Origin: a virus
Reading direction: 5' to 3' (one strand)
Length of the DNA stretch: 64,000 bases
Virus record (IMG/VR): IMGVR_UViG_3300018430_001101
Location: 1 to 64,000 of that record
In this document: one piece after another, positions 8,528 through 22,658 of the stretch
Numbering within the stretch: position 1 is the first letter of the stretch
How the letters are laid out: the number at the start of each line of letters is the position of its first letter
Notes under the pieces: model-generated
What the model was told of the DNA's origin: nothing
The model's database searches: none
Seen by the model: the letters and a program-made list of their open reading frames with translations, nothing else
Made by a program: the position numbers and the translations under genes

Positions 8528-8851
8528 TTAAATCCTGAAGGTGTAGGTGAGGTCCATCGCCTGCAGTTCCTTAAGCAGCTCCGCGCCACGCCTGATCTCG
8601 TCCGCCGTCCTGAGCAGTTCCTCGGCCGAAGGGCTGCCGCCCATCTTCCGGACGCTTGCCGCGACGTTCAGTTTTTCCTCGATGCGGCCTTCCCGCCAAT
8701 CGGTGTTCTCCGTGGCCTCGGTAGTAATGGTGAAGTTCATCTCATCGCTCAGGATCTCCGGGAATCCGCTCCATCCGGCCGCCTTGCCAGTCTCGAATCC
8801 GTGCCGCTCCGCTGCCTTTCTGACCGCTTCCCTTGCCTCTGTCCTTGTCAT
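8528..8851 (-). CDS. Hypothetical protein
   Basis: ATG at 8851 preceded by AAGGAGGG SD, downstream of promoter repeat copy A; the ORF-track N-terminal extension is translation of the repeat itself. Confidence 0.5.
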   Translation of the reverse strand: MTRTEAREAVRKAAERHGFETGKAAGWSGFPEILSDEMNFTITTEATENTDWREGRIEEKLNVAASVRKMGGSPSAEELLRTADEIRRGAELLKELQAMDLTYTFRI

Positions 8852-8936
8852 GTCCTTGCCCTCCTTTTGTTTTTTCATGCCCTGTGGTTGTTTCTGCTCG
8901 GTGGTCTTTCGCCGCTCCGGGGCTTTTGCTTTTTCC

Positions 8937-9013
8937 CCTTTCGGTATGTGCATATTAGCGTCATGTGGGGAGAATAGCCACGCCTGTGGGGAAAATAGAT
9001 CCCACAAAGATTG
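8937..9013 (-). promoter_or_regulatory. Conserved promoter repeat, copy A
   Basis: Consensus (transcript sense) TCTTTGTGnAATGTATTTTGCCCnCAGGCG-TGGATA-[12 variable nt]-GACGC-TAATAT-GCACATACCGAAAGG; -35-like hexamer, 17-nt spacer, -10 TAATAT. Confidence 0.65.
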
Positions 9014-9211
9014 AAAGCCACATCGCGCCTGCTTCTGGTGGTTGTGCACAGTCTGTGGATGTCGCACGGAGGACAAAGGAAAGCGGCTGCGCCTCCCCTT
9101 TCCGGGCCTATCAGCCGGTTTCCTTCACCCTCTGTGTTTCCTGCGGCGTTCCTGTACCGTCCCTGCGCTTTTTTTCGCCTGTTCCTTCCTCCGGTGACTG
9201 GAAGAACTGCC

Positions 9212-9526
9212 TCACTGGAAGTTGCCCCTGTAGATGTCGTAGGCGGCGAGGAACTTGGTGCGCCAGTCCCTGTTCTGCGTCTCAAGCCCGTAAGCTATGG
9301 CGTTCGCCATCCAGTACTCCATCCATCTCTTTGCCTCTTCTTCCGTACAGGACATCGTAAGCTCGATGAAGGTTTCTTTGCAGTCAGTGTAGTCTCCGCT
9401 CTGCCGCAGTGTTTTCTCCTTGTCGTGGTAGTCGATCAGGAAGGCAAGCATCCTGATGTCGTATGCCCCCGCTTTCGCCTTCGCAGTGAAGTCTGCGTCA
9501 AACCTCGTGAATTCGTATGCGTTCAT
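9212..9526 (-). CDS. Hypothetical protein
   Basis: 104-aa product MNAYEFTRFDADF...; start chosen at ATG after basic antisense-like N-extension. Confidence 0.45.
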   Translation of the reverse strand: MNAYEFTRFDADFTAKAKAGAYDIRMLAFLIDYHDKEKTLRQSGDYTDCKETFIELTMSCTEEEAKRWMEYWMANAIAYGLETQNRDWRTKFLAAYDIYRGNFQ

Positions 9527-9594
9527 TTCTTTCCTTTCCCAGCCTTTGCTGTGTGCTTTGTTTCTGCGGTTCTGCCCTGGTCTCCGTACCCTGC

Positions 9595-9885
9595 TCAACC
9601 CTGCGTCATCGCCCACATTGCGGCGCTTCCGTCGTCCTCGAATTCGACCGCGCTTGCTGCCCTCAGCCCGATGGTGCCTTCGCAGGTGTGGTCTTCGGTC
9701 AGGAATTCGTAGGCGGCCCCGAAGTAGCAGGGCTTTCCTTTCCCGCTGTAGTAATGCCCCGCGAGGATCACCCTGTCCCCGAAGGTCAGCACCTTTGACC
9801 ACCTGGTTTCCAGGTCTTCCGGCGTTGTGGGGTTCGGCAGCCTGTAGGTCCTCATTGCTTCTTTGATCGTCATCGTTTTTTCCAT
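9595..9885 (-). CDS. Hypothetical protein
   Basis: Start MEKTMTIKEAMRTYR at 9885 downstream of repeat copy B; upstream ORF-track extension is repeat-derived. Confidence 0.5.
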   Translation of the reverse strand: MEKTMTIKEAMRTYRLPNPTTPEDLETRWSKVLTFGDRVILAGHYYSGKGKPCYFGAAYEFLTEDHTCEGTIGLRAASAVEFEDDGSAAMWAMTQG

Positions 9886-9940
9886 CCTTTCCGCTTCCGC
9901 TGTGTTCCGCTTCCGCTGTGCTTTGTTTTCCTCTGTCTTC

Positions 9941-10016
9941 CCTTTCGGTATGTGCATATTAGCGTCATGTCCGCTGGATAGCCACGCCCTGCGGCAAAAT
10001 AAACTGCACAATCTTT
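9941..10016 (-). promoter_or_regulatory. Conserved promoter repeat, copy B
   Basis: CCTTTCGGTATGTGCATATTAGCGTCATG...GCCACGCCCTGCGGCAAAATAAACTGCACAATCTTTC on plus strand. Confidence 0.65.
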
Positions 10017-10128
10017 CAGGGCTGGATCTGGTGGTTCTGCACAGTCTGCGGATGCCCCGCGCAGGGCATAGAGAAACCGGCTGTGCACCCCCTTCAGAAG
10101 GTGCAGGCCGGTTCCCGGTGGTTTCCCT

Positions 10129-10332
10129 TTACTTCCCCATCCGCTCCCTGATGGCGTCCGCAAGTTCCGAGGCTTTCTGCAGGAGCTTCCTGATCTCCTC
10201 CGCTGCCTCGATGTCCTCCTCCCCGGCCCCGCTGAGGTCGTAGAAGACCTGGTGCAGCTTGTAGTCAAGCTCCGCTGCCGCCGTAAGCGCCTCGTCGCAA
10301 AGTCCGTACATCCTGGTTTCGTTTGCTGTCAT
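10129..10332 (-). CDS. Hypothetical small acidic protein
   Basis: 67-aa ORF downstream of repeat copy C. Confidence 0.45.
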   Translation of the reverse strand: MTANETRMYGLCDEALTAAAELDYKLHQVFYDLSGAGEEDIEAAEEIRKLLQKASELADAIRERMGK

Positions 10333-10422
10333 GGCTTTATCCTCCTCTGTTCTGGTGCCTGCTGTTTTGCTGTTCTGCTGTCCTGTTGTGTTCCCCCTCC
10401 GGGGCCTGCCGCAGGGCTTTTT

Positions 10423-10498
10423 CCTTGCGGTATGTGCATATTAGCGTCTGCGGGCGGCATTATCAACGCCTTGTTGAAAAATACATTGCACAAAGACC
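10423..10498 (-). promoter_or_regulatory. Conserved promoter repeat, copy C (best -35: TTGATA)
   Basis: Same consensus; -35 TTGATA, 17-nt spacer, -10 TAATAT. Confidence 0.65.
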
Positions 10499-10569
10499 GG
10501 AGGCCGTATTTGTGCAGTTATGACGATGGATGTCCACAAGCCACTGTCAGTTCAGAAGCCACTGTCAGT

Positions 10570-11121
10570 TCAGAAGCCGAAGTCGGCCAGATGGAACGGA
10601 TGCTTCCTGGGCAGCGGCTCGTGGCCGGCGGCGCGGCAAATCCCTGCGGCCTCATCGTCCGGGAGGATCCGCAGGACCTTCATGCTCCCCGCGATCACCC
10701 ATTTCCCGAGCATCTGCGGGCTGGTCTTATACCGGTAGAAGCCGCCCACGGGGATGTGTCCCAGCATCGCTTCCGACGGATGGAAAACACCGTCGCGCAT
10801 CCCGTTCCGGTCCGCCTCCGGCTGGTAGTCCACGGCGTCGGAATACTCGCACTCGCACCATGCCTCGTCATCATGCATGTAGCGGATCCTGCCGCCTTCC
10901 CGGATCCCGATGTGTATGGCAAGCGGGATGTCCGAGAGGTGCCAGCCGGAGCGGAACGCAAGTGGGCCGAGCTTCGACTTCACTTTGCCGGACGGCAGGC
11001 GCGGGCCTTCCTCGGCGGGGAGCCAGACCCCCATGGGGACCGGCCTGTCGGCGAGGACGTACAGCGGGAAGAGCCTGCCCGGATGCTTCTTCTTCAGTTT
11101 GAACAGCTTGTATCCGACCAT
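10570..11121 (-). CDS. Hypothetical protein (183 aa)
   Basis: Internal ATG at 11121 preceded by GGAAGGAGGA SD; Trp/Cys/His-containing globular-looking sequence; no family recognised. Confidence 0.5.
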   Translation of the reverse strand: MVGYKLFKLKKKHPGRLFPLYVLADRPVPMGVWLPAEEGPRLPSGKVKSKLGPLAFRSGWHLSDIPLAIHIGIREGGRIRYMHDDEAWCECEYSDAVDYQPEADRNGMRDGVFHPSEAMLGHIPVGGFYRYKTSPQMLGKWVIAGSMKVLRILPDDEAAGICRAAGHEPLPRKHPFHLADFGF

Positions 11122-11145
11122 CCCGTCCTCCTTCCGTGCCTCCGC

Positions 11146-11185
11146 GCCTCTGCGTCTCTGCGTCTCTGCGTCTTCGCGTCTCCGG
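11146..11185. repeat. Short tandem repeat (GCGTCTCT-like octamer x4-5) in 5' leader of 10570..11121
   Basis: Plus strand cctctgcgtctctgcgtctctgcgtcttcgcgtctcc. Confidence 0.5.
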
Positions 11186-11366
11186 TCCTCCGGTTCACCG
11201 GCTTCCGCAATTTCCCTGCCTCCCGGCCTGCCATCCACACGTGATGTGGCGGCTGCGTCCCACTAAAAAGGGAGCCTCCGAAGAAGCTCCCCGCTGTGTG
11301 CTGCATCTGCTGCCGCCCGTTCCATGTGTCCCTCTGCCCGGTGCCGTTCCTCTATCCTGTCCTGCC

Positions 11367-11777
11367 TCAGTTCACTTTGAACCGGAGTCCGCGGACCGTC
11401 TCCTCTTCCTCCGTGCCCCAGCGCCTTTCGATTCGGGTAAAGGCGCAGGCTCCTTCGAGCGTGCAGCCTTCCGCGATGAAGCTGTGGATGTTCCCCATGA
11501 CTGCCGTGCTCTGATTGCTGTAGATGAACTCGGTGATGCCCGCCCTGCGGAGGGTGCCGATGAAGTCCGCGACCTCCCTGTCCCAGAGGAAGTCGTTCAT
11601 CTCGAAGTCCGCGTTCCCTTTCTCAAGGCTGTATTCGTAGGCCCTGTAGGCTTTGTAGGCTCCGCTGCTGATGGGGTCCTCCATGGCTTCCTTCTCGGCG
11701 TACCAGGCTTTCAGCTCCTCGCTGTCCCATCCAAATTCCTCAATGATGCCTGCTTCTTCGCTTCGTGCTCTCCGCAC
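11367..11777 (-). CDS. Hypothetical protein (start uncertain)
   Basis: 136-aa ORF; overlaps upstream small ORF in another frame. Confidence 0.4.
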   Translation of the reverse strand: MRRARSEEAGIIEEFGWDSEELKAWYAEKEAMEDPISSGAYKAYRAYEYSLEKGNADFEMNDFLWDREVADFIGTLRRAGITEFIYSNQSTAVMGNIHSFIAEGCTLEGACAFTRIERRWGTEEEETVRGLRFKVN

Positions 11778-11885
11778 CTTCTGCCATGTTCGTACCCGGC
11801 CCGCTCAATTTCCGCGAAGTGCCCGTTGTCAGTGAAGTTCCTGTCCTGCGCTGCGTTCTGCTCCAGTGTCCTGATGTTCCTCATT
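11711..11885 (-). CDS. Hypothetical small protein (MRNIRTLEQNAAQDRNF...)
   Basis: ATG at 11885 with AGGAGG SD 7 nt upstream; first gene after repeat copy D; overlaps next ORF by 67 nt in different frame. Confidence 0.35.
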
Positions 11886-11976
11886 GTCTCTGCCTCCTCT
11901 TTCCGCCGGTCCCTCCCGGTCGCTTTGCTTTGCTTTGTTCTGCCTTGCTGAGTTCCTCTGCCGCAGGGGCTTTTCC

Positions 11977-12053
11977 CCTTTCGGTATGTGCATATTAGCG
12001 TCACACGGCAGTTATATCCACGCCTGTGGGCAAAATACATTTCACAAAGATTC
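11977..12053 (-). promoter_or_regulatory. Conserved promoter repeat, copy D
   Basis: Plus strand CCTTTCGGTATGTGCATATTAGCGTCACACGGCAGTTATATCCACGCCTGTGGGCAAAATACATTTCACAAAGATT. Confidence 0.65.
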
Positions 12054-12356
12054 GGCCTGATCCAGGGGCTGGTTTTGTGTATATTATGGCGGCCGGCAGG
12101 TGCGTCCTGAAGCCTCGTACAGCCCCTGTATCGCGCCGGGAGGCACATCCGCACCAACTGTCCATCTGCAGCCGCAGGACGCGGCACGGTCTGAATCCGA
12201 GGCACTGGGGCGCGTCCTGGGCGGCACATCTGGTCTGAGGTTCCCACGGTGTGGATGGCTTCCGCAGTGTGGATGGCTTCTGCATCAAGGACAGTTTCCA
12301 CAGCGGAAGAACCCGGAAAGAAGGAGGGGTTTTTTACCCCTCCTCCTCATTTCCGC

Positions 12357-12677
12357 TCACCTGTCGAGGATCATGTCGATCATCTGCGCGCTGCCGCAGT
12401 CAACATGCCCGTCATGCCATATGGCAATCCGGAGGTCGGCATCGATGTCCGGCAGGAAAAGCTCGTAGGTGACTGCCTCTGCTCCGCAGCGGATGCAGTC
12501 GTCCACCCTGCCGTAATACCAGAAGCTGTTCAGCTCCGTGAGCGTGCCGTCAGGCCTCCGGACCTTTGCGCCATGCCTGCGGAGGCGCTCGATGTGGAGC
12601 TGGTTTGTATCCATCTCCGGGGTGCCGGTGGTTCCGGCCGTCATGCCTGTTCCGTTTTCTGTGTTCATGTTCGTCAT
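12357..12677 (-). CDS. Hypothetical protein
   Basis: 106-aa ORF; AGGAGG upstream; second gene of unit E. Confidence 0.45.
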   Translation of the reverse strand: MTNMNTENGTGMTAGTTGTPEMDTNQLHIERLRRHGAKVRRPDGTLTELNSFWYYGRVDDCIRCGAEAVTYELFLPDIDADLRIAIWHDGHVDCGSAQMIDMILDR

Positions 12678-12696
12678 GGCTACATCCTCCTTTGCC

Positions 12697-12879
12697 TCAG
12701 CAGAATTCTATGGTCAGCATCCCGTCCCTTCCGAGGAAGAAGTCGTTCTGCACCAGCGGATCCTCAAAGAAGGTTTCCTTCGCTTCTTCCGTCATCCTCC
12801 TGAGCCTGTCCTCGCCTACCAGCTCTTTTACCGCCTTGCGGGTGGTTTTCTTTCCGTCCAGGTAAAACCTTGTTTTCAT
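12697..12879 (-). CDS. Hypothetical small protein
   Basis: 60-aa ORF directly downstream of repeat copy E, SD GGAAGGGAG. Confidence 0.4.
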   Translation of the reverse strand: MKTRFYLDGKKTTRKAVKELVGEDRLRRMTEEAKETFFEDPLVQNDFFLGRDGMLTIEFC

Positions 12880-12951
12880 GCCTGCTCCCTTCCTGCGCTT
12901 TTTCTTCCTGCGCCGTGTGCCTCTGTCCGGTTCCCCTCGCCGGTTCCTTCC

Positions 12952-13027
12952 CTCAAGGTATGTGCATATTAGCGTCGGTGGGCTGTATTATCCACGCCTG
13001 CGGGCAAAATACATTCCACAAAGATGG
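12952..13027 (-). promoter_or_regulatory. Conserved promoter repeat, copy E
   Basis: Plus strand CTCAAGGTATGTGCATATTAGCGTCGGTGGGCTGTATTATCCACGCCTGCGGGCAAAATACATTCCACAAAGATGG. Confidence 0.65.
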
Positions 13028-13135
13028 GGCGGCATTGGTGCCTGGATTCTGGCAGATATACACACTGGATCTGCGGCATCCGGAGGGCTCCGGGATGGCG
13101 TAATGTACACAAAAGCCGGGGCGTCAGGAGCGGGA

Positions 13136-13210
13136 AAGTTTGTGTACATTACTTTCGCGCAGGGCGTGGATATATCCCCGGCGTGACGCTAATATGCACA
13201 CAACAAAAGG
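13136..13210 (+). promoter_or_regulatory. Conserved promoter repeat, copy F (inverted, drives plus-strand gene)
   Basis: AAAGTTTGTGTACATTACTTTCGCGCAGGGCGTGGATATATCCCCGGCGTGACGCTAATATGCACACAACAAAAGG; -35 TGGATA 13167-13172, 17-nt spacer, -10 TAATAT 13190-13195. Confidence 0.65.
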
Positions 13211-13262
13211 AAAACACACCGGCCGCAGGGCCGGGACGCACGCCGCACAGGAGGGAAAAGCC

Positions 13263-13565
13263 ATGACAGTAGCCACCACAACAGCAACAGCCACCACAGC
13301 GAGGAAGCCTTACACAGAGGTCGAGGCGCTCATCGAGAAGGAGATCGAAAAGGAAAGCGAACTTTACGACCTTGACATTTACGACATCAACGACATCCGC
13401 CTGGAAATCTACAGAGCGAACGGCTGGAGCTACGACCCCTGGCCGGAAGGAGAAGAAGAAGAGGACGAGGAAGACGTCTTCGACCCGGATGAAGAACCCT
13501 GGTTCCACCGGGACCCCTACTACGAATACACCGAGCGGGGCCTGAGCTTCTGGGATTTCGTCTGA
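13263..13565 (+). CDS. Hypothetical acidic protein (only plus-strand gene in this half)
   Basis: ATG at 13263 preceded by GGAGGGAAAAGCC; 100 aa, Asp/Glu/Trp/Tyr-rich. Confidence 0.5.
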   Translation: MTVATTTATATTARKPYTEVEALIEKEIEKESELYDLDIYDINDIRLEIYRANGWSYDPWPEGEEEEDEEDVFDPDEEPWFHRDPYYEYTERGLSFWDFV

Positions 13566-13741
13566 ACCGCCCGCAGGGTGCTCCTTCTGGGGGCCTCCTG
13601 CCCACAGTGATCTCCTGCCCCACACGGTGGCCTCCTGCCCCACAAGGCTTGCCCAGTCCAGGCACGGCATCTGCCGGGCCTGCTCCCTCCGTAGCTTTTC
13701 ATGCGGCGTGCATACCGCCGGATAAAGTGCCGGTTCCAGCC

Positions 13742-13813
13742 GGAATCTTTGTGTACTTTATGCCGGCGGTTTTTGTTGCTATACGTTGCGCCTGACGGTA
13801 ACATGTCCATAAG
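13742..13813 (+). promoter_or_regulatory. Degenerate eighth copy of promoter repeat (copy H), plus strand, no obvious downstream gene
   Basis: GGAATCTTTGTGTACTTTATGCCGGCGGTTTTTGTTGCTATACGTTGCGCCTGACGGTAACATG: -35 TTGCTA 13776-13781, 17-nt spacer, -10 TAACAT 13799-13804 (same -10 variant as copy G). Confidence 0.45.
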
Positions 13814-13963
13814 ATGAGGAGGGGACGTTTTTTACAAAAGGCCCCCTTTGCCAGCCGGAAGCTTCGTAGTTCCCGAGGCTCCCGGCCGGCTTTTTCTCTT
13901 TATGCACGCAGGTTCCCGTCATCCTGCCGGCTTTCGTTTCACTCTCCGGTACAGGGTAGCGCG

Positions 13964-14383
13964 TCAGGAAGTCCGGAAGACCTCCTTCGGGGGCTCGCCG
14001 CTCCCGATCCTGAACCGCAGCAGCTTCCCGCTGAGAGTCCTCGCGAACATTTCCGGGTACCGGAACATCCCCCTGAACTTCTCCACAAGATCGTCCGGCA
14101 GGTCCGCAAAATTGTCACGGCTGAGCCCGCAGACAAAGAACGTCCCGCAGACGATGTCGTAATCGCCCAGCATCCGGTTCGGCTGGGAGCCTTTCAGCTT
14201 TGCTTCGTCGTCACAGACCAGCGCCGCGTATTCAGGCCACGGATAGACTGCCTGCAGCGTCCCCCCGACGATTTCCTGCATGGCTCTGAGCGTATGCGGG
14301 ACCACCCGAAGCTCCGGCTCCTTCATCGGCTCGACCACGAGGATGCGGATGGTTTCCACGTTTTCCTTCTTCACTGCGGCCAT
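13964..14383 (-). CDS. DUF3846-like protein
   Basis: MAAVKKENVETIRILVVEPMKEP...LRAMQEIVGGTLQAVYPW...ALVCDDEAKL..PNRML resembles the DUF3846 family pattern (from memory); SD AGGAGGGAGG. Confidence 0.6.
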   Translation of the reverse strand: MAAVKKENVETIRILVVEPMKEPELRVVPHTLRAMQEIVGGTLQAVYPWPEYAALVCDDEAKLKGSQPNRMLGDYDIVCGTFFVCGLSRDNFADLPDDLVEKFRGMFRYPEMFARTLSGKLLRFRIGSGEPPKEVFRTS

Positions 14384-14862
14384 CTCCCGCCTCCCTCCTG
14401 CGGCACCCTGACCGCCGCCCATTCCATCAGCGGGAGCTTCCTTTTGATGAAGCCGCTGTCCTCGAGTGCCTCAATCTGGCCGCACCGGCCGCAGACCATG
14501 ATGTCCAGCCTCCGGGAAAGCGCGTGCGCATACAGCTTCCCCGGCATCTGTACCCCGCACCTGGGGCATCTCGCCCCGTCGTGCTGTGCGGCGGCATACC
14601 GCAGGAGCGTCGCCTTCGCCTCTTCCTCCGTGCGGATCTTGTGGCAGGTATCCGCTCCCCATGCCACGCTTAAGCTGCTCCCCGTGTCCCAGTGGCAGCA
14701 GATGGATCCTGCATCGTCAACCCCCGTGCACACTCCCTGCGTGCCGGGTGGGATGTGTGTATAAGGATCATCCATATGGTCGAGGACGATCCTGCACCCC
14801 TTCGGGTATTCCCTCCGCAGACGTTCCACCGTGCCCCTGTCCGGAAAGTTCATTATGCCCAT
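14371..14862 (-). CDS. DUF4314-like domain protein with C-terminal CxxC...CxxC zinc ribbon
   Basis: RLRREYPKGCRIVLDHMDDPYTHIPPGTQGVCTGVDDAGSICCHWDTGSSLSV resembles DUF4314; CPRCG...CGRCG; SD GGAAGGAGG before ATG 14862. Confidence 0.55.
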   Translation of the reverse strand: MGIMNFPDRGTVERLRREYPKGCRIVLDHMDDPYTHIPPGTQGVCTGVDDAGSICCHWDTGSSLSVAWGADTCHKIRTEEEAKATLLRYAAAQHDGARCPRCGVQMPGKLYAHALSRRLDIMVCGRCGQIEALEDSGFIKRKLPLMEWAAVRVPQEGGGRWPQ

Positions 14863-14910
14863 TTGTGCCTCCTTCCTGCGTTTCCCTCGCCGCCTGTTCA
14901 CCCGGCTCCA

Positions 14911-15408
14911 TCACTGCCCGTCCTTCCGGCTCCTTTTAAGCGCGTCCTCCAGCACATGCATCGGCAGGCCGAGGTCCCTGTAAGCCCTCTCGATGATCCC
15001 GTAGTAGAGCGGGGAAGGCTCCCGGAGGCCGCCTTTGAAGTTCATGACGTATGCCATCCCTTCGCCCTGCAGCTCGTTCCCGTCCTCATCCCACACGGAG
15101 AACCTGACGTCCTCCTTCCGGTAAAGCTCCGGGTAGCCCTCGTAGCGGTCGAGCGCCTTCTCGTCCGATGCGGAGACCGCCCACACAAGGACCGGGGTGC
15201 TCTTCTTCTCATCTTCCCGGATGTTGGCGTACTCCTTAAACTCCAGCTCCCACCCATGGAGGATGCCGGCCCCGACCACCTCCGCGTCAGGGCAGCGCCT
15301 CTCCATCATGCCGGTGTCCAGGTTGCTGCCGTACGCGACGTATACCTTCTTCGTGCCGATCCGTTTCAGGATCTCCTTCGTATTAAGCTTCATGTTCTGC
15401 TTCTTCAT
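14911..15408 (-). CDS. Gamma-glutamyl cyclotransferase-like (GGCT/AIG2 fold) protein 1
   Basis: N-terminal VYVAYGSNL (YGSNL signature) and LDRYEGYPELYRKEDV (catalytic Glu context) of GGCT/AIG2-like family. Confidence 0.7.
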   Translation of the reverse strand: MKKQNMKLNTKEILKRIGTKKVYVAYGSNLDTGMMERRCPDAEVVGAGILHGWELEFKEYANIREDEKKSTPVLVWAVSASDEKALDRYEGYPELYRKEDVRFSVWDEDGNELQGEGMAYVMNFKGGLREPSPLYYGIIERAYRDLGLPMHVLEDALKRSRKDGQ

Positions 15409-15506
15409 TCCCGTTCCTTTCTGCCGCCCAGCGGCCTCCGTTTTTTTTCCACGGTTTTAGTGGTTTTAAGGGTTTTTAGCTGTTGTGGTGTTCCGCGGGC
15501 TCCCAC

Positions 15507-16061
15507 TCACCTGCCATCGGTTCCTGCCTCGTAATCCGCCAGCCACGCATCCGCAGCCGCATACCCGATGCTGTCCTCGAGGGCTCTGTGGAGAGGTCCT
15601 TTTTCAAATCCCCACCGTCCATAGCCTCCGTCAAGGAGCCGGTAGTACTCTGCGGAAGGCGCTCCGAGGGGCCTGTCCTCGCGGAGGATGTACGCGATGC
15701 ACTTCCTGGGCTTTTTCAAAGTCCTGCCCGAAAGGCCCTTCACCTTCAGCAGGAACTCCCTCTTGTAGTACCATTGCGGGCATCCCTCATAATAGTCGAG
15801 CCTCGCCTCGTCGCTCTCCGTCATGCGGTAGATGGCGAGCGGGACCCGGCTGTTGGCGTCCTGCTCGATGGTGGCGTAGAACCCGGAGGCGCTCCTTTTG
15901 AACAGGAGCCTCCATCCTTCGAGCACGGCCGTGCCGATGGGCTTCGAGCGCGGGCACCTCGCTTTCATCCTCTCCAGGTCCAGGTTGCTGCCGTATGCCG
16001 CGTAGAAGACCTCCCCGTTCCCGCCGTTCCAAAACCTCATGTTCTTCCAGATGCCGTCCAT
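15507..16061 (-). CDS. Gamma-glutamyl cyclotransferase-like (GGCT/AIG2 fold) protein 2
   Basis: VFYAAYGSNLDLERM and RLDYYEGCPQWYYKREF; start at ATG 16061 preceded by GAGGAGG. Confidence 0.65.
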   Translation of the reverse strand: MDGIWKNMRFWNGGNGEVFYAAYGSNLDLERMKARCPRSKPIGTAVLEGWRLLFKRSASGFYATIEQDANSRVPLAIYRMTESDEARLDYYEGCPQWYYKREFLLKVKGLSGRTLKKPRKCIAYILREDRPLGAPSAEYYRLLDGGYGRWGFEKGPLHRALEDSIGYAAADAWLADYEAGTDGR

Positions 16062-16183
16062 CGCCTTGTCCTCCTCTGCCACGCCGTTGTCCGCAGTTTC
16101 CGTTCCTTTGAAATCCGTCTGCCTCCCATCCCTTCCCCGCCGGCACGTCCTCCGGCGGGGCTTCCCTTCTGCCTGCCCTGCGC

Positions 16184-17119
16184 TCAGACTCCGTGCCGCC
16201 ATGCGCTGCTCCCCTCGAAGTTCCTCAGGAAGTATTCCCTCGCTGTCTTGAATTCGTCCCCGATGAATCCGAGGCGGAGCATGAAGCATCTGAACCCGTA
16301 GGTCTCGTTGTCGCGCTGGCCCTTTTTAGGGCTTGCGTACCTGACCTCCTTGGCAAGCTCGCTGAGCGCGAGGCAGAGCTGGATCATGGCCCGCAGCTGC
16401 CCGGCATGAAGGCCGCCTTTTCTGCCGTTCCCTGCAGAGTCAAAGTTAAAACAGCGGAATTCGATTGTGTGGAACCTCGTGAAGTAGCTGTGCAGGTTGC
16501 ACATCCTGTACCGCGTCTGTGAGTAATGGCCGTTCTCGACCGGGCCGTTGTACCAGCACCTTGCAAGGGCCGCCTTCGTCTTCGGCTTCGTCCTGTTAAG
16601 GCGTTCGAGGAAATCCGGGTCGACCGTGCGGCAGTAGTTCTGCTCCCTCGCCCTGCTGACCTCGACCGCTTTCAGGAGCTGGTCTTCATGCGCCGCCATG
16701 AGGTTGACCAGGTTGCGGATCGTGGCAGGCGTATGCCCGTCCCCTCCGATGTGGATGTGAATTCCACACATGTGCTCCTTGTCGCTTTTCCCTCCCGCGT
16801 GCCTGATCTGGCGGATCAGCTCCTGCAGGGTTTCCATGTCCGCGTACCGGAGGACCGGCGTCACAAGTTCGCAGCGTTCCTCGTCCCTGTCCGCCCGGAT
16901 GCTCGAATCCCTCTGGAACTTCCATTCGCGGCCCTGCGCGTCCCATGCGCTCCAGGTCTGGTAGCCGTTGGCGTGTGCCGTGTATTCGTACCTGCCGGTT
17001 CCGAAGTACCCTGCGGCCGTCTTTGCCGCGTCCCTCCGGGTGATCCCGTACATCTCGATCTCCGTGCCGAATGTCTGCTGCTTCATGTTCCCGATCTGCT
17101 TCGCTGTCTTCTCTGTCAT
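16184..17119 (-). CDS. Glutamine-synthetase-like amidoligase (Amidoligase_2 / YbdK-GCS2-related carboxylate-amine ligase family)
   Basis: N-terminal TFGTEIEMYG (G.E.E strand characteristic of GS/GCS2-type ligases), MCGIHIHIGGDGH, Arg-rich C-terminal half; 311 aa; AAAGGAG SD; first gene after repeat copy G. Confidence 0.6.
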   Translation of the reverse strand: MTEKTAKQIGNMKQQTFGTEIEMYGITRRDAAKTAAGYFGTGRYEYTAHANGYQTWSAWDAQGREWKFQRDSSIRADRDEERCELVTPVLRYADMETLQELIRQIRHAGGKSDKEHMCGIHIHIGGDGHTPATIRNLVNLMAAHEDQLLKAVEVSRAREQNYCRTVDPDFLERLNRTKPKTKAALARCWYNGPVENGHYSQTRYRMCNLHSYFTRFHTIEFRCFNFDSAGNGRKGGLHAGQLRAMIQLCLALSELAKEVRYASPKKGQRDNETYGFRCFMLRLGFIGDEFKTAREYFLRNFEGSSAWRHGV

Positions 17120-17173
17120 GGCCTGGCTCCTTTCAAATCCCCGCTCCCGGCGGGCGGCTTTTTTTGCTTTTCC

Positions 17174-17250
17174 CCTTTCGGTATGTGCATGTTACCGTCA
17201 GGTGGGGCAGGAGCCAAGTCATAGTTTGAACATATATTTCACAAATATCT
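17174..17250 (-). promoter_or_regulatory. Conserved promoter repeat, copy G (drives amidoligase operon)
   Basis: Plus strand CCTTTCGGTATGTGCATGTTACCGTCAGGTGGGGCAGGAGCCAAGTCATAGTTTGAACATATATTTCACAAATATCTG; -10 variant TAACAT. Confidence 0.6.
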
Positions 17251-17422
17251 GTGTTTTGTGACGCCATGTATTTGTGCAGTTTATGGCGGTTTTTCCGGGG
17301 ATCTGTTGATAGTTTTCCGGCAGTCCGGGCTTGTTTTTTCGGCGGTTCCGGCCGCCTTTCTCCCACAGTGTCCGTGGCGGCATCGTTAATTAGTTGTCAA
17401 TCCCCGGCGATGGGCGCAATGG

Positions 17423-18514
17423 TCACACTGCCGGAGCCTCAGCATTCTCTGCCGTGTCAGTGGTGCCTTCGGTTTCTGTGGCTTCCACAGCGTCTTCGGC
17501 AGGAGCGGATCCGAAAGCATCTGCTGCGGCCGCGGCCCTCGCCGCCAGCCTCTTCTGCTTCGCTTTCTCGGCATCCTCCGGAGTTCGGAACGCGCTGTGC
17601 CCTGCAAGGGGATCCAGCAGGATCCTGCGCGCTTCCCTGTATTCCCCTCCGCCCATGCCGATGCGTACCATCCACACCCGGAAGGAGTACTTCTCGTTCG
17701 TGTCATCCACGGCCTTGGCAGCGATCCGTTTCTGCCGCAGGGCTGCCGAGTTGATCCTCTCCGCAAGCTGCATGAAGGCCTTCGTCTTTTCCGGCTCATC
17801 CGCCTGCGGGAATCCCGTGAAGATGACTTTCTCAGGTGTCAGCACGAGGCCGGTCATGGAAGGCCCGCCGGTGCTGTCCTCATACATCCCGACTGCCCTG
17901 CGGAAGTCCTCTGCGGTGTAGAGATCCCCGGCTTCATCCAGGGCTTTCAGGAGGCCCGCGTTGATGCCGAAATGACCGCCCGTTGACCTGGTAAGGAGCT
18001 TCCCCCTGCTGTAGATGGTGTTCACGAGGTTCCGCAGGGTCTGTGCGTTGTGGCTGCCCGCAGGCAGGCTGATTGCAAGGTCGTAGATGGCATTGTAGTC
18101 ATAAGGCTGTTCTTCCATGCGGTCCTCTACCTTCCCTGACGCACCTTCGCCCTCTTCGGTTTCTGCTTCCACGGCGGGTTCACCTTCCGGGACGGCCTCT
18201 TCTTCCACAGTAGTCTGCTCCTCTGCCTCAGTGGTCTGGTCTTCTGTGGTCTGCTTCTTTGACTCTGCGGCGTGTGCCTCAGTCGCCGGCGTCTCTCCGG
18301 CTTCGATCAGTCCTTCGTCGATCAGCGTCTGGAGGATCTGCCAGTCCGCTTTGTCCTCTTCGGCCGTGAGCCTGCCGTCCATCTCGATGGCGTAGTCCCC
18401 GACCAGGTAGGCGCACCTCGGGACGTATGTGTAAACCGCCTTTGTCCCTGTCAGTTCCTCCAGCCGCTTCTTTACGGCTTTCCTGTCATCCACTTTCTTT
18501 CTGAATTCCAGCAT
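17423..18514 (-). CDS. Hypothetical protein (363 aa) with acidic linker
   Basis: ATG 18514 after AAAGGAGACG SD; no family recognised. Confidence 0.45.
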   Translation of the reverse strand: MLEFRKKVDDRKAVKKRLEELTGTKAVYTYVPRCAYLVGDYAIEMDGRLTAEEDKADWQILQTLIDEGLIEAGETPATEAHAAESKKQTTEDQTTEAEEQTTVEEEAVPEGEPAVEAETEEGEGASGKVEDRMEEQPYDYNAIYDLAISLPAGSHNAQTLRNLVNTIYSRGKLLTRSTGGHFGINAGLLKALDEAGDLYTAEDFRRAVGMYEDSTGGPSMTGLVLTPEKVIFTGFPQADEPEKTKAFMQLAERINSAALRQKRIAAKAVDDTNEKYSFRVWMVRIGMGGGEYREARRILLDPLAGHSAFRTPEDAEKAKQKRLAARAAAAADAFGSAPAEDAVEATETEGTTDTAENAEAPAV

Positions 18515-18798
18515 GTTCGTCTCCTTTCTTTCTGCGCTGCCTGCCGGACATCCCCGGTGCCGCCGGGAACCTTCCATCCCCGGTGCCGGCCTTCCGCAGG
18601 CGCTTGTCTTTGGGTAGTGTATTAATCACTCTGAACCACCGTATTATCAAGCGGAAAATGTGGGATTCTGCGCAGGTTCGGGATGTTCTGCGTAATGCAC
18701 AAAATAGTCCAGCACAGACTGGCAGATAGTCACAGTCTTTGAACCACAACGTCGCTATCGTCACAGCCTGTGCCGGATGGAGCCGGAGCGCCGCACGG

Positions 18799-21700
18799 TC
18801 AGACGGCACCTTTTCCCGCTGCCCAGGCGATCCCTGAAAGCACGAAATAAACTATAGGCAAAGAAATCCCGTTGCCCCATAACTTGTACTCGGCGGCATC
18901 CGTGTGGGGATCGGCGAGCCATTTGCGGAGCTGCTTCTCCGTCTTCGGCTTCTTCCCGTTCATGGCGTTCCACGCGTCCCACACTCCCTTCCAGAACGCC
19001 ATTTCCTCCGGCGACGGATCCGGGTCTGCAAGGCCCGCGCACCACCAGTCCGGGAAGCCCTGGAGCCTCGCGCATTCGACCGGGGTGAGCCTGCGGACGA
19101 TGTACATGGGCTCCTCGTTCGGCATGTCGTTCAGGATCGGCGGGTCCTTGTAGTCCGTCGCCACAAGGGTGTTCGCCTGCTCCTTCGCGGGGTGCATGAA
19201 GAAGGAATTCTTGGATGTTGAGTAATGGCTGGCATCCTCCAGGGGTGCCGCCACGCAGTGCCGGTCCGCGGTATTGAGGGTGAACGCGACTTCCTCGTTG
19301 ATGCCGCTTCCCTGCGGGCCGTTCTTTTCCTTCCTCCCAACCATGGAACCCTGCAGCGAATAGGCAGGTTCCGCGGATTCAGCCGGTTCCACAGGCTCCA
19401 CAGGCGCGACGATGCAGATGCCCCCCTGGTTGCAGCAGGGATTACCTCCGCCCTGGTCAAGGGTCCGGCTCGTCTCCGCCTCGTAGAATCCTGCCTTCGG
19501 GTTGTCCGAAAGCATGGAGTGGGAACTCTTGCTGCACACGCCGAATGCCACCGGCTGGAACAGCGTCTGGTCATTGTGGGTGCCAAGTGTAGCAGATTTA
19601 TTGACCTGCCGGATCGGGCCTTTCCCTCCTCCGGGGCAGCCTCCACGGATCTTAAGGGTCACAGGCTCCGGCTCTGCCACAAGCGGCTGCGTGTTCCCGC
19701 CGGTTCCGTAGCGTGCAGTGACCGTGGGGCTGTCCTCCAGGGGGCCGTCATAGCGGCAGTCCTGCGGATGGTTGTCAAAGAGCATTGCCGCCGGGACTAC
19801 GCCCGCCCTCAGCGTAGGGGAGACTTCTTCCCCGTAGCCGATGCTCCGCGCCTTCGCGCTGTGTTCCGTGGAAAAGCCCGCTGCCTGGAGTACCTGTTCA
19901 CCGGATCCTTCAGCCAAAGCGTCGGGCGGAACCGCCGCAGGATGCAGGACGGCAGGGTGGTTGCCGTGGTCCTGCGCGACCAGGGTGCCCGCATGCCCCT
20001 CCGTGACGGTGATCCCGCTGCTCCCCTGGGGGTTCACGCACACTTCGGTCACACGGGATCCGCCTCCTGAACCGCCTGCGCTTACTCCACTTCCAGCGTC
20101 AGGCCGCCCGCCTGCCTCTCCAGCGCCTTTTTCAGCACCTCCGGCAGCTCCTTCCCACGCGCGGAAGCCCTGCGGAGTATACCCAGACACGCCTTCGGAC
20201 TCAAATAGTACTTCCGGGGCACTTCCTCCAGCAAAATCTGCGACAAGGTAGATCCTTGCGCGGCGCTGGGGGCAGGACCAGTATTGAGTGTCGAGAGTCC
20301 TGTAAGCCACGCTCCATCCGTCTCCCAGGTATACGTCCGCTTTAGGCCATCTGTAATTCTCAGGCGGAGGCACCTCGGCTCCTTCCTCCCTGACGCCGAT
20401 GACGGCTTCGAGGACGGCCTTGAAGTCCCTTCCCCCATTGGAGGAGAGGGCCCCAGTAACGTTTTCCCACACGCAGTATCTTGGGTATCTGCCATTTGTC
20501 GCCTCCCTCATTTCCCTGATGATCCGGATCGCCTCGAAGAACAGGTTTGACCTCTGTCCTTCATGGATGCCGGCCCGTTTGCCTGCTATGGAAAGATCCT
20601 GACAATTGTGCACTGTGATCCCGTCTGCAATATAGCTGTTATCCTCTTCTACTGTCAGGTTGTACACAAGCTTCGTATGATGTGTCGGGATCACTTTTCT
20701 CACCCGATACCATCCGTGCAGGTCGTCGGTAAGGTGGACCCGCTTCCCATTCCGTGTGATTTTTACTTCATAGCAGTCGTTCTGGTTGACCAGCCGTCCT
20801 TCTATTACCCCGGTTTTTCTGACATTATAGAGATAGACAGTTGTCGAATACCCCTGCACTTCCGCAAGAAGCCGGATGCTCTCGGCAAGCTTTTTGCTGA
20901 CCGTGCTGATCCTCCATGTTGTCTCTTTGCCCTTTACCTTGGACCCGTCAGAATCAATTAAACCGTTTAACAATGCCTGCCTGTATCCTTCCTGCATGCC
21001 GAAAACCCATCCCGGCATGGTTTTGCCGATTGCGTAACGACCGAAGTTATCCGTAAGCCATCCGCTCAGCACCTGGGAAACAAAAGAAAAACGCACGACA
21101 CCTCTGTCATGCGCAACGCAATATCTATCTGATATTTTCCCGACTATGCTTTTCAGTTCGTCTTCCTTATCTTCGGAATCACAGATGAAAACCTTCCCGT
21201 AAGTTTCTCCTTCCGGCCTGTTGCTTCTCTGTCCATTACATACCCACCCATCCCCGAGCCAGCGTCCCACAAAATAGAAGAAGTCTTCAGACAACGTCGG
21301 CATAGCCTTCTGCCTCCATGATCCTGAATACACTGGTGACGCAATCGGAAGACCCTCTACGGCATTGGGGACTCCCCAAAAACCACCTTCCATTTCTCCT
21401 GCAGGTATCCAGTTCCTCTCATCTGTCAGAATCAGTTGGTTTCCTCTTTTCCCGTTTCCAAGAGATGGGTAGTATTTTTTTACTCCGCAAGAATATATAG
21501 GATGGTTTGGCGTGCACTCCAAGCCATAGTGATTGCCTTTCAGTATCACGGTCTCTCCAGGCTTTGCGCCTGACGCAGTAACCTTCTTCCATCTGCCCTT
21601 ATGTGTGAGAACCTTTGTTCCGACTCCTATCTTCTCTATTGGAACATATCCCTCTTCTGTCAGCACCAGCGTCCCTGCCGGGAAGCAAGGCGAGCCAAAT

Positions 21701-21915
21701 GTTATGATGTCCACAGGCTCCAGTTCGGATCCTTTGAGCTTCGAAACATCCCCATAGTGCTTCACCTGCGGCAGCCGCCTGTGGGTGACCAGGATTGGGA
21801 ACGGCTCGATCTCGCTGGAAAAAACCGGCCTAATCCCGGCAAGGATGCCGCCTAAAGGAAAACCCCCGGAGCCGTCAAACAGGCTGCCGAGGGTCAGTGT
21901 TTTCTTTTCTGCCAT
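18799..21915 (-). CDS. DNA (cytosine-5)-methyltransferase with long variable region, interrupted by a LAGLIDADG intein
   Basis: Motif I LFDGSGG, motif IV split as GSP|intein|CQDLSIAGKRAG, ENV motif YCVWENV, C-terminal RRLTPVECARLQGFPDWW and GNGISLPIV. Confidence 0.9.
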   Translation of the reverse strand: MAEKKTLTLGSLFDGSGGFPLGGILAGIRPVFSSEIEPFPILVTHRRLPQVKHYGDVSKLKGSELEPVDIITFGSPCFPAGTLVLTEEGYVPIEKIGVGTKVLTHKGRWKKVTASGAKPGETVILKGNHYGLECTPNHPIYSCGVKKYYPSLGNGKRGNQLILTDERNWIPAGEMEGGFWGVPNAVEGLPIASPVYSGSWRQKAMPTLSEDFFYFVGRWLGDGWVCNGQRSNRPEGETYGKVFICDSEDKEDELKSIVGKISDRYCVAHDRGVVRFSFVSQVLSGWLTDNFGRYAIGKTMPGWVFGMQEGYRQALLNGLIDSDGSKVKGKETTWRISTVSKKLAESIRLLAEVQGYSTTVYLYNVRKTGVIEGRLVNQNDCYEVKITRNGKRVHLTDDLHGWYRVRKVIPTHHTKLVYNLTVEEDNSYIADGITVHNCQDLSIAGKRAGIHEGQRSNLFFEAIRIIREMREATNGRYPRYCVWENVTGALSSNGGRDFKAVLEAVIGVREEGAEVPPPENYRWPKADVYLGDGWSVAYRTLDTQYWSCPQRRARIYLVADFAGGSAPEVLFESEGVSGYTPQGFRAWEGAAGGAEKGAGEAGGRPDAGSGVSAGGSGGGSRVTEVCVNPQGSSGITVTEGHAGTLVAQDHGNHPAVLHPAAVPPDALAEGSGEQVLQAAGFSTEHSAKARSIGYGEEVSPTLRAGVVPAAMLFDNHPQDCRYDGPLEDSPTVTARYGTGGNTQPLVAEPEPVTLKIRGGCPGGGKGPIRQVNKSATLGTHNDQTLFQPVAFGVCSKSSHSMLSDNPKAGFYEAETSRTLDQGGGNPCCNQGGICIVAPVEPVEPAESAEPAYSLQGSMVGRKEKNGPQGSGINEEVAFTLNTADRHCVAAPLEDASHYSTSKNSFFMHPAKEQANTLVATDYKDPPILNDMPNEEPMYIVRRLTPVECARLQGFPDWWCAGLADPDPSPEEMAFWKGVWDAWNAMNGKKPKTEKQLRKWLADPHTDAAEYKLWGNGISLPIVYFVLSGIAWAAGKGAV
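20605..21687 (-). mobile_element. Intein (361 aa) in C5-MTase with LAGLIDADG motifs
   Basis: Begins CFPAGTLVLTEEG after ITFGSP; ends GITVHN followed by Cys that is the catalytic Cys of PCQ motif (junction verified at 20605-20607 = AAT Asn, then TGT). LAGLIDADG motifs FVGRWLGDGW and LLNGLIDSDGS. Confidence 0.8.
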
Positions 21916-21951
21916 TATACATTTCTCCTTCGCCGCGCAGGCCTGCCCGCC

Positions 21952-22658
21952 TCACACATACTCGACGCACCTGTCCGACTTCTGGAATACCCAGAAATAT
22001 GAATGGAACTTCCTCGCGTGCTCCTGGTTCTTCCTCTGCCAGTCCGCGACCAGGCGGTTCTTTGCAAGCAGGATGAACAGGTCCTTCGGGTAGAATCCCG
22101 CCTCCACTGCCTGTTCCATCACGAACACATGGGAGAAGTACTGCTTCCCGCTGCTCACCTTGTCCTGGCATTTGAAGATCAGGATGCCGCCGGGTCCAGC
22201 ACCCGGTATGCTTCCCGGATGGCGTCCCTGTACATCCTGTGCAGGCTCTTTTCATCCGGGTACACGCCGAAGCGCCGGTTGATCCGGTTGCTGCCGGTCC
22301 GGCCTCCTCCTTCCAGGCAATGGCCTTCAGCCATCCCCTGTCCTTCCGGCAAGGGCTGGCAGGCTTCCAGCGACGGGCCCTTCGCCGCGAGGAACGGCGG
22401 GTCGAGCATCATGCACGCTATGCTCCGGTCTGCAAGCGGGAGGTGCCGCGCGTCCGCCCTTGCGACGCCCCCAGCCTGCGGCCTTATGTCGAAACACAGT
22501 GCGGGGCGCCCTATGCCGGTGCCATCGTAAAAGGCTCCCGTGCTGAAGGTCGGGTCGCAATCAATCCTCCCTCCGGGCACATGGAGCCTTATGATGTCCT
22601 TTATGATCTGCGCCTGGTCATAGCCGGTGCTCTTTACCAGGCCGCGTGTTTCCGTCAC
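21952..22658 (-). pseudogene. Frameshifted, C-terminally truncated N6/N4-type DNA methyltransferase remnant
   Basis: ORF 22179..22658 has motif IV context ADARHLPLADRSIACMMLDPPF and ...REAYRVLDPAAS*; the continuation GGILIFKCQD...GFYPKDLFILLAKN (catalytic-region motifs) is in the -1 frame (ORF 21952..22158). No HPT.KP / DPF.GSGTT C-terminal block before the C5-MTase start at 21915. Confidence 0.5.

Follow-up and report, generated by a model that had tools for sequence, protein, structure and literature searches.

A conserved phage module pairing an Amidoligase_2 protein with gamma-glutamyl cyclotransferase-fold proteins, tentatively assigned to the formation and cleavage of a gamma-glutamyl-type amide

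GS, GCL, YbdK, PuuA-type enzymes and PafA activate the gamma-carboxylate of glutamate, and to our knowledge the same holds for all characterised members of the glutamine synthetase/glutamate-cysteine ligase (GS/GCL) fold. GGCT, GGACT, ChaC and BtrG convert gamma-glutamyl amides to 5-oxoproline, and every characterised enzyme of the gamma-glutamyl cyclotransferase (GGCT) fold that we know of acts on small molecules. In eukaryotic cells, GCL and GGCT together run a gamma-glutamyl cycle that converts glutamate and ATP to 5-oxoproline, ADP and Pi. In the butirosin pathway (BtrJ/BtrG) and in the Puu pathway of E. coli, an ATP-dependent ligase adds a gamma-glutamyl group, which is removed by the GGCT-fold enzyme BtrG or by the hydrolase PuuD, respectively. 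PafA and Dop are a pair of GS-fold paralogues with divergent roles.

Among phages, the phiEco32-type cassette comprises amidoligases of the PF12224 type, an ATP-grasp ligase, a glutamine amidotransferase and a GGCT; according to the reports that describe it, this combination is biochemically uncharacterised and is predicted to modify the cell wall (PMC5498523, PMC10580990, citing Iyer et al. 2009). Among the 'Ca. Heliusvirales' gut phages, the Acutalibacteraceae phages NatCom_991 (PV036413) and NatCom_11578 (PV036426) encode an orthologous ligase, 59% identical to the one described here, with a GGCT gene directly downstream. The pair is flanked there by the ParB-methylase/C5-methylase genes on one side and the terminase on the other, and its surroundings include a DUF4314 gene and a paralogue resembling the ligase. 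Prophages of Clostridium clostridioforme LM41 are listed with two phrog_2443 genes and one phrog_2520 gene (PMC11318856).

The window analysed here, a stretch of 64,000 nucleotides of viral DNA, derives from a temperate phage of Clostridia with kinship to 'Ca. Heliusvirales', a link based on gene order and on homologous TerL, portal and methylases. In tblastn comparisons with PV036413 and PV036426, the portal (49-50% identity), TerL (53-54%) and the ParB-methylase (53-54%) were found in the same order. The window encodes a terminase, a portal, a prohead protease, a DNA polymerase and a primase. DUF4314, DUF3846 and Amidoligase_2 also occur in integrative conjugative elements; such an origin was rejected in view of these five genes and of the few plasmid records that matched the ligase (five, of which the one inspected is a prophage).

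As listed in Table 1, the ligase, two GGCTs, a DUF4314 and a DUF3846 protein are encoded on the minus strand at the positions given in the initial annotation. In 54 of 57 related viral loci, the gene that directly follows the ligase gene encodes a GGCT (median gap 109 nt), and in 55-56 of the 57 the module has two DNA methyltransferase genes on one side and the terminase on the other. The pair thus occurs at the same place in nearly every sampled related locus, and is therefore under strong selection. Three of the related loci carry the ligase without a recognisable GGCT, and so does Faecalibacterium phage FP_Taranis, considered as a cultured model, in which Pfam detected no GGCT beside the ligase. 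Genes of related genomes already bear the labels 'amidoligase enzyme' and 'gamma-glutamyl cyclotransferase'. The arrangement as a whole is standard in this gut phage lineage, which is very common, and has been annotated there before, which reduces its novelty.

Table 1. Positions of the module genes and of the promoter-like repeat copies in the window
Feature	Position	Strand	Basis or remark
Amidoligase_2 protein (ligase), 311 aa	16184..17119	-	Pfam, PHROGs and fold model
GGCT-fold paralogue A, 184 aa	15507..16061 (alternative start 16202)	-	PF06094, phrog_2520
GGCT-fold paralogue B, 165 aa	14911..15408	-	PF06094, phrog_2520
DUF4314 protein, 163 aa, C-terminal CxxC...CxxC zinc-ribbon-like extension	14371..14862	-	PF14192
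DUF3846 protein, 139 aa, final gene of the unit	13964..14383	-	PF12957
Degenerate, probably non-catalytic ligase paralogue, 363 aa	17423..18514	-	homology to the ligase
Promoter-like repeat copy of the ligase	17166..17244, core 17180-17199	-	repeat family D1; TTGGCT-17 nt-TAACAT
Repeat cores (region 8929..13204)	8943-8962, 9947-9966, 10429-10448, 11983-12002, 12957-12976	-	
Repeat core	13185-13204	+	sole plus-strand copy

The assignment of the first gene to the GS/GCS2 amidoligase superfamily, proposed in the initial annotation, was borne out by an HMM search, in which the protein matched PF12224 with an E-value of 2.5e-51 and 175.3 bits (curated cut-off 22 bits) over profile positions 2-244 of 245. 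Moreover, it belongs to phrog_2443 'amidoligase enzyme' (E 2e-98). Searching the PDB sequences with the ligase and its family profile yielded no meaningful match, and at this level only the comparison of folds was informative: the predicted model has the glutamine synthetase/glutamate-cysteine ligase fold. Residues E20, E22, E84, H121, H123, E220 and R222 are invariant across the ligase and its homologues (family alignment, n=18), and most of the invariant acidic, His and Arg residues fall on strands of the model. The protein is thus predicted to be an ATP-dependent carboxylate-amine ligase of the GS/GCL fold. None of the six module proteins matched an NCBIfam profile, and we found no biochemical data on any PF12224 protein in the literature searched.

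The GGCT assignment of the next two genes stood for one of the two profiles concerned. Both proteins exceed the curated cut-off of GGACT profile PF06094 (22.8 bits), with 41.6 bits (E 2e-10) for GGCT-A and 40.0 bits (E 7e-10) for GGCT-B, whereas PF13772 remained below its cut-off of 27 bits (24.8 and 23.6 bits, respectively). Both were assigned to phrog_2520 'gamma-glutamyl cyclotransferase' (E 1e-35 and 8e-32) and, in line with the paralogy claimed before, they are 35% identical to each other. The two proteins align to human GGCT (2pn7), including the YGSNL motif, and Glu92 of GGCT-A, like the corresponding Glu of GGCT-B, is aligned to a position occupied by Gln in entry 3cry, which we take to be that of the catalytic Glu98 of human GGCT. 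Among related phage GGCT sequences, AYGSNL is present in 79 of 79 and the Glu in 77 of 79. GGCT-A and GGCT-B are paralogous GGCT-fold proteins that retain YGSNL and the catalytic Glu, and are predicted to have cleavage activity. The probable start of GGCT-A is the one preceded by the ribosome binding site GAGGAGGA; a second gene caller chose the alternative start. Unlike the NatCom and LM41 pairs, the window contains two GGCT genes, as do 5 of the 57 related loci, GGCT-B being an additional copy limited to the closest relatives.

The third component, encoded upstream of the ligase and its repeat copy, is a degenerate, probably non-catalytic paralogue of the ligase. The two proteins have in common the fold and a highly conserved C-terminal region (NE-Y-x-x-R...G-x-x-A-F-R), whereas the residues of the metal and ATP sites are missing from the paralogue. 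Residues ~76-143 form a variable, strongly acidic disordered linker. The paralogue was recovered from about 74 of 82 loci, belongs to the same conserved module as the ligase and is annotated elsewhere as 'virulence-related protein'. It had not been listed in the initial annotation.

Based on these assignments, the ligase would activate a carboxylate with the help of ATP and Mg2+ and join it to an amine acceptor, giving a gamma-glutamyl-type amide; the carboxylate in question is most likely that at the gamma position of glutamate. The GGCTs would cleave gamma-glutamyl amides with a free alpha-amino group into 5-oxoproline and the free amine, and could thereby erase, recycle or proof-read what the ligase makes, while the paralogue would probably act as a non-catalytic partner that binds, for example, substrate or ligase. 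The repeat copy would provide the unit with its own promoter-like element. We prefer this reading of the conserved module between methylase and packaging genes, but hold it tentatively, with somewhat less than an even chance of being correct. Gene identities, folds, conserved active-site residues, synteny and the repeat are direct results of the analysis. From them we infer that glutamate is the activated substrate, that ligase and GGCT work on the same bond and that the paralogue has a partner role; the carboxylate need not be glutamate. The ligase-only loci are easier to reconcile with an eraser that can be dispensed with than with an obligatory second step.

The gamma-glutamyl cycle follows the same logic, in that a gamma-glutamyl amide is made and then cyclised. 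However, the ligase studied here is much smaller (311 aa), is only 10-15% identical to GCLs without a sequence-level match, and we know of no glutathione pathway in the Clostridia hosts of such phages. If ligase and GGCT acted on the same small molecule, the outcome would be a futile ATP-consuming cycle, which calls for further explanation. A purely metabolic role, either as such a truncated cycle, for which the eukaryotic enzymes provide an exact precedent, or as unrelated auxiliary metabolic genes that merely adjoin, appears very unlikely to us: PHROGs places phrog_2520 in its category 'moron, auxiliary metabolic gene and host takeover', but a gain for the phage is not evident, the adjacency in 54 of 57 loci speaks against mere neighbours and the ligase-only loci suggest that the ligase product itself is important. 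The preferred reading shares with the butirosin and Puu pathways the principle of a transient gamma-glutamylation of an amine; BtrJ, however, is an ATP-grasp enzyme and not of the GS fold, and the intermediate modifying enzymes of both pathways have no evident counterpart here.

The module could, as predicted for phage cassettes of amidoligase, GGCT, GATase and ATP-grasp proteins in PMC5498523, PMC10580990 and PMC11318856 (citing Iyer 2009), edit the cell wall by altering peptidoglycan stem-peptide precursors with their gamma-D-Glu linkage, and so block superinfection or tune lysis. The window indeed encodes many wall-binding proteins, namely three SPOR-domain proteins, an amidase, a lysozyme and a GH114 protein. 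However, the ATP-grasp ligase and glutamine amidotransferase of the phiEco32-type cassette were found neither in the unit nor among about 45 window ORFs scanned with Pfam or PHROGs, and phrog_7469, the second family of phage amidoligases in PHROGs, gave no more than a weak match to the ligase (E 2e-5). Moreover, GGCT enzymes require a free alpha-amino group, which the D-Glu of the stem peptide does not have. The phiEco32-type cassette lies among DNA-metabolism genes, whereas the module of this phage of Gram-positive Clostridia precedes the packaging genes, and in temperate phages the genes for superinfection exclusion normally owe their expression to the lysogeny region, not to a repeat common to pre-packaging units. 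Wall editing is therefore, in our view, quite improbable.

The paralogue invites a comparison with PafA and Dop, likewise a GS-fold pair with divergent roles. Dop, however, is catalytically active, whereas the paralogue lacks the metal-site residues, and no Pup-like small disordered protein ending in Glu or Gln was found among the ORFs of the ligase unit. The DUF4314 protein, the one small partner that is conserved, was considered as a Pup- or LysW-like carrier or tag and rejected, as its C-terminus is variable and not conserved; its ~75-aa domain looks folded. A version of the preferred reading in which a macromolecule is gamma-glutamylated, either at a protein lysine or at an amine that is part of phage DNA or attached to it, with the ligase as writer, the GGCTs as erasers and the dead paralogue as reader or adaptor, is unlikely. 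If true, it would represent a novel form of reversible tagging, found in most sampled relatives of a phage order that is among the most prevalent in the human gut.

Alternatively, the acidic-linker paralogue may be a decoy or adaptor in counter-defence or host take-over, with the ligase inactivating or mimicking a host factor (for example an immune protein, or a signal or metabolite that bears an amine) and the GGCTs destroying a host gamma-glutamyl compound or recycling the adduct. Besides the long, variable and strongly acidic linker, the location of the module among small genes with individual promoters, beside anti-restriction-type methylases, points in this direction, as does the experimental identification of Nmad5, a relative in the Nmad family, as an anti-Tmn protein (PMC11846954). 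On the other hand, none of the six module proteins matched PADLOC, although this library covers defence and not anti-defence, and no link between GGCTs and phage defence was found in the literature; searches on anti-defence links, polyvalent proteins, DUF3846/DUF4314 and Nmad4 returned nothing specific. Anti-defence genes are usually variable, accessory and early, whereas the module is near-universal, fixed in position and preceded by a repeat family that leads into the packaging genes. Thus, we assign counter-defence a low probability.

Downstream of the GGCT genes, the DUF4314 (14371-14901; PF14192, E 4e-28) and DUF3846 (13964-14422; PF12957, E 1e-28) proteins have probable starts at 14862 and 14383, respectively. 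In 50 of the 57 related loci a DUF4314 gene is no more than 4 kb away from the ligase, mostly upstream of it and encoding a ~75-aa single-domain protein; in contrast to the NatCom and LM41 pairs, it is found downstream here and has a zinc-ribbon tail. The DUF3846 gene, likewise an addition relative to these pairs, occurs in just 2 of the 57 loci and is an occasional, not a core, partner. Ligase, GGCT-A, GGCT-B and DUF4314 genes are spaced by 122, 98 and 48 nt, and the DUF4314 and DUF3846 genes overlap by 13 nt. The repeat scan revealed no further copy between the five genes, and the sole minus-strand terminator-like site of the unit is weak and lies within the last gene (14141-14153); a single operon therefore fits the sequence. 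Of the operon behind a promoter copy proposed in the initial annotation, the repeat ahead of the ligase was recovered and the gene spacing is consistent with it, but the single operon is not established.

The repeat consensus GACGCTAATATGCACATACC was found, with up to three mismatches, in 7 copies in the window, six on the minus and one on the plus strand, as compared to 0 in 100 shuffles. The ligase unit carries its own copy of this phage-specific, promoter-like element about 50-120 nt upstream of the gene, between the paralogue and the ligase start codon at 17119; with two mismatches it is the most divergent copy, and it has an AT-rich TTGTGAAATATATGTT block further upstream. The copy at 10415 passes a sigma-70 scan as TTGATA-17-TAATAT. 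As Rfam gave no match in 7000-24000, the repeat is not a known RNA family. From its sequence we infer that the repeat acts as a promoter, and likewise the timing of expression. The other six copies each precede a short transcription unit, the last of which reaches the packaging genes: copy 8943-8962 is located upstream of two small ORFs, followed by TerS (7562-8026) and TerL. The ligase is thus preceded by the same repeat family as the units leading into TerS/TerL, as had been noted previously.

From this common promoter type, the initial annotation had deduced a modification of a virion component or of phage DNA, for instance a glutamyl-type hypermodified base or a tagged structural protein. 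The location between methyltransferase genes and terminase, an Nmad4 ('nucleotide modification associated') gene nearby behind another repeat copy, and a near-universal conservation at a fixed position, which suits a role in making progeny, all favour it, as do Pfam amidoligase matches in some thymidine-hypermodification clusters (Lee et al. 2021, PMC8989533). However, the deduction found no support: the repeat also precedes small genes without a recognised virion function (Nmad4, DUF7698 and unannotated ORFs), and among about 45 window ORFs scanned with Pfam or PHROGs we detected no dUMP/dCMP hydroxymethylase, 5-hmU kinase, aGPT-Pplase, TET/JBP, PLP enzyme or deazaguanine gene, the only modification-type genes being methyltransferases, MetK and Nmad4. 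Furthermore, an eraser beside the writer would be unexpected for a stable mark on virion or DNA, and the characterised GGCT-fold enzymes use small molecules, not polymers. We therefore regard this explanation as improbable, and the initial interpretation as a whole as partly supported. Its statement that phage amidoligase/GGCT pairs lack biochemical characterisation still agrees with the literature, none of the papers listed since 2019 reporting one.

With the acceptor identified, thousands of database proteins would gain a function (the ligase has more than 8000 close homologues), the degenerate paralogue would be explained, and it would become clear whether host gamma-glutamyl or amine metabolism is rewired, the wall edited, defence countered or the phage's own components marked. 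The lineage is widespread, 'Ca. Heliusvirales' phages having been reported in human gut samples from every continent (PMC11283538). Finally, the same repeat family lies just upstream of the ligase in one related locus (L013) and a variant family was found in two others (L016 and L012), and the window encodes a phage protein with a sigma-70 region 4 at 43443-43970.

Searches against Pfam and PHROGs placed the amidoligase, two GGCT-like genes, DUF4314 and DUF3846 on the minus strand, in full agreement with the positions given in the initial annotation, and assigned the ligase to Amidoligase_2 rather than outside the GS/GCS2 superfamily. An independent gene call on a metagenome contig with 99.99% identity to the window yielded the same genes in the unit. 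The two cyclotransferase-like proteins, GGCT-A and GGCT-B, share 35% identity.

Positions and assignments of features in the window
Feature	Coordinates	Strand	Assignment or remark
Amidoligase_2 (ligase)	16184-17119	-	Pfam PF12224, E 2.5e-51; PHROGs phrog_2443 'amidoligase enzyme'
GGCT-A	15507-16061	-	Pfam GGACT/AIG2-like PF06094, E 2e-10; phrog_2520 'gamma-glutamyl cyclotransferase'
GGCT-B	14911-15408	-	Pfam GGACT/AIG2-like PF06094, E 7e-10; phrog_2520
DUF4314	14371-14901	-	Pfam; start 14862 in independent gene call
DUF3846	13964-14422	-	Pfam; start 14383 in independent gene call
Ligase paralogue, 363 aa	17423-18514	-	phrog_2443 match; upstream of the ligase's repeat copy
Repeat copy ahead of packaging genes	8943-8962
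Plus-strand repeat copy	13185-13204	+
Plus-strand gene	~13262-13565	+	no Pfam match
Nmad4 protein	~9594-9956	-	PF18756, E 3e-20
DUF7698 protein	~11367-11884	-
Sigma-70 region 4 protein, 175 aa	43443-43970	-	PF04545, E 9e-9
TerL intein gene	4766-7486	-	Hint + LAGLIDADG
C5 DNA methylase intein gene	18799-21915	-	Hint_2 + homing endonuclease
NrdD intein gene	32418-37361	-	intein splicing domain
Three SPOR-domain proteins	25348-29925	-	GH114+SPOR; SPOR+metallo-beta-lactamase fold; Amidase_2+phage lysozyme+SPOR
S-adenosylmethionine synthetase	37548-38753	-
PemK/MazF-like toxin domain protein, 271 aa	42389-43204	-
9-nt tandem repeats (TCCTGTTGT-like)	4144-4206	-	just beyond the portal gene's 5' end

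The AlphaFold model of the ligase, based on an alignment of 18 homologues, reached a mean pLDDT of 82.4; a sequence-level search of solved structures returned no match. Residues E20, E22, E84, H121, H123, R203, Y204, E220 and R222 are invariant in the family alignment and, R203 and Y204 excepted, lie on predicted strands, as do the metal and ATP ligands in the GS/GCL superfamily. Ligase homologues are encoded in genomes of rumen and gut Clostridia, e.g. Blautia, Porcincola, Ruminococcus and Oscillospiraceae. Judged by their residues, both GGCT paralogues look like active enzymes under selection. The YGSNL motif is present in their alignments to human GGCT (2pn7), and the Glu of each (LDYYEG, LDRYEG) aligns to a position occupied by Gln in PDB entry 3cry, which we take to be the catalytic Glu98 of human GGCT. 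AYGSNL occurs in every one of 79 distinct related phage GGCT sequences, 77 of which retain the Glu.

The next gene upstream of the ligase, which the initial annotation did not list and for which Pfam returned no family, is best read as a non-catalytic ligase paralogue. Its family aligns to ligase residues 118-310 (hhalign probability 99.7%) and shares the highly conserved C-terminal segment NE-Y-x-x-R-x-W ... G-x-x-A-F-R; the GxExE strand is missing from it, and neither His121/His123 nor Glu220-x-Arg222 is conserved in its consensus. A homologue precedes the ligase in ~74 of 82 loci, and in more distant phages the paralogue occurs without the ligase. NCBI labels its relatives 'virulence-related protein'. 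Homologues so labelled are found near terminase genes in a C. butyricum megaplasmid prophage (locus L087, 9013-9729) and in the Streptococcus Javan102/112 and Gardnerella vB_Gva_AB1 records, in all of which tblastn detected no full-length amidoligase.

The ligase profile retrieved 80 IMG/VR loci, and the following counts refer to the 57 with at least 2.5 kb on each side. A GGCT gene lies directly downstream of the ligase in 54 (median gap 109 nt), DUF4314 lies within 4 kb in 50 (upstream in 44 of these), a ParB-methylase is found upstream in 56 and TerL downstream in 55. Together, the locus counts define a module core consisting of paralogue, DUF4314, ligase and GGCT. Local additions are DUF3846, present in only two loci, and the second GGCT, present in five. 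In three loci and in the cultured Faecalibacterium phage FP_Taranis no GGCT is recognisable beside the ligase, indicating that the ligase product is probably the functional end point.

To our knowledge, every enzyme of the ligase's fold that has been characterised joins a glutamate to an amine after activating its gamma-carboxylate, the glutamate being either free or the C-terminal residue of Pup, and the GGCT-fold enzymes characterised so far all convert gamma-glutamyl amides into 5-oxoproline by cyclisation, thereby freeing the amine. Taken together with the tight and widespread pairing, these chemistries suggest that one bond is made and then broken. We tentatively favour a scheme in which the ligase would write a gamma-glutamyl-type amide that the GGCTs would erase, recycle or proof-read. 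The paralogue, sharing the C-terminal surface without the catalytic residues, would most likely bind the ligase or its substrate.

The rival readings differ mainly in the acceptor. Modification of the virion or of DNA, as proposed in the initial annotation, would suit a module that adjoins methylase and packaging genes and has an Nmad4 gene nearby. However, no known base-hypermodification enzyme was found among the window ORFs scanned with Pfam and PHROGs, and an eraser beside the writer is odd for a stable mark, which makes this target unlikely. The phiEco32 cassette has been predicted to edit the cell wall; for the module here, such a role is very doubtful, since neither the ATP-grasp nor the amidotransferase partner of that cassette was found among the window ORFs scanned with Pfam and PHROGs. 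A purely metabolic cycle, or neighbours that are functionally unrelated, is hard to square with the synteny and quite improbable.

An ~80-nt repeat is present in seven copies at 8.9-17.2 kb, as opposed to none in shuffled sequence. It comprises an AT-rich upstream block, a GTGGAT/TTGATA-like hexamer, a 17-18-nt spacer and TAATAT, followed by GCACATACCGAAAGG. One copy passed a plain sigma-70 scan; the ligase's copy is the most divergent (TTGGCT-17-TAACAT). The single plus-strand copy stands ahead of the region's only plus-strand gene, as would be expected of a directional signal, for instance a promoter. This gene encodes an acidic protein and is convergent with the amidoligase unit; the genes for Nmad4 ('nucleotide modification associated domain 4') and DUF7698 proteins each lie behind a copy of their own. 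The proposal that one family of putative promoters serves both the unit and the packaging genes agrees with the copy that precedes two small ORFs and then TerS and TerL. A copy precedes the ligase, the repeat scan found no other up to DUF3846, and the sole minus-strand terminator-like site in between is weak and lies inside the DUF3846 gene; a single operon is plausible. Expression of the unit may be 'late', and the sigma-70 region 4 protein is a candidate for reading or regulating the repeat sites. Small, individually promoted neighbours and the acidic linker of the paralogue would be in line with counter-defence or host take-over; however, the near-universal conservation of the module at a fixed position renders this improbable.

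'Ca. Heliusvirales' genomes from human faeces are the window's nearest deposited relatives, and the ligase-GGCT pair is already annotated by name therein. PMC11318856 also names the pair in C. clostridioforme prophages, and this source, PMC5498523 and PMC10580990 quote a 2009 prediction of the general association. In line with the initial annotation, our literature search found no biochemistry reported for the pair. New are the quantified synteny, the finding that several related phages place this repeat or a variant of it directly before the ligase, and the reading of the 'virulence-related protein' neighbour as a dead ligase paralogue. The genes themselves would not surprise a specialist, and the phage lineage is a very common one.

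All long genes of the window lie on the minus strand. They include replication genes (DNA polymerase A, DUF2800 nuclease, D5-type primase, SNF2 helicase), NrdD and MetK, a ParB-fused N6/N4 methylase and a C5 methylase, and TerS, TerL, portal and a ClpP-type protease. The polymerase, primase, terminase, portal, protease and methylase content identifies the window as a phage; a conjugative element is ruled out by the replication, terminase, portal and protease genes. The PemK/MazF-like protein and the S-adenosylmethionine synthetase are encoded inside the replication/nucleotide module. Inteins interrupt three essential or large genes, and the three SPOR proteins in a row are an unusual concentration of septal-peptidoglycan-binding modules for a phage.
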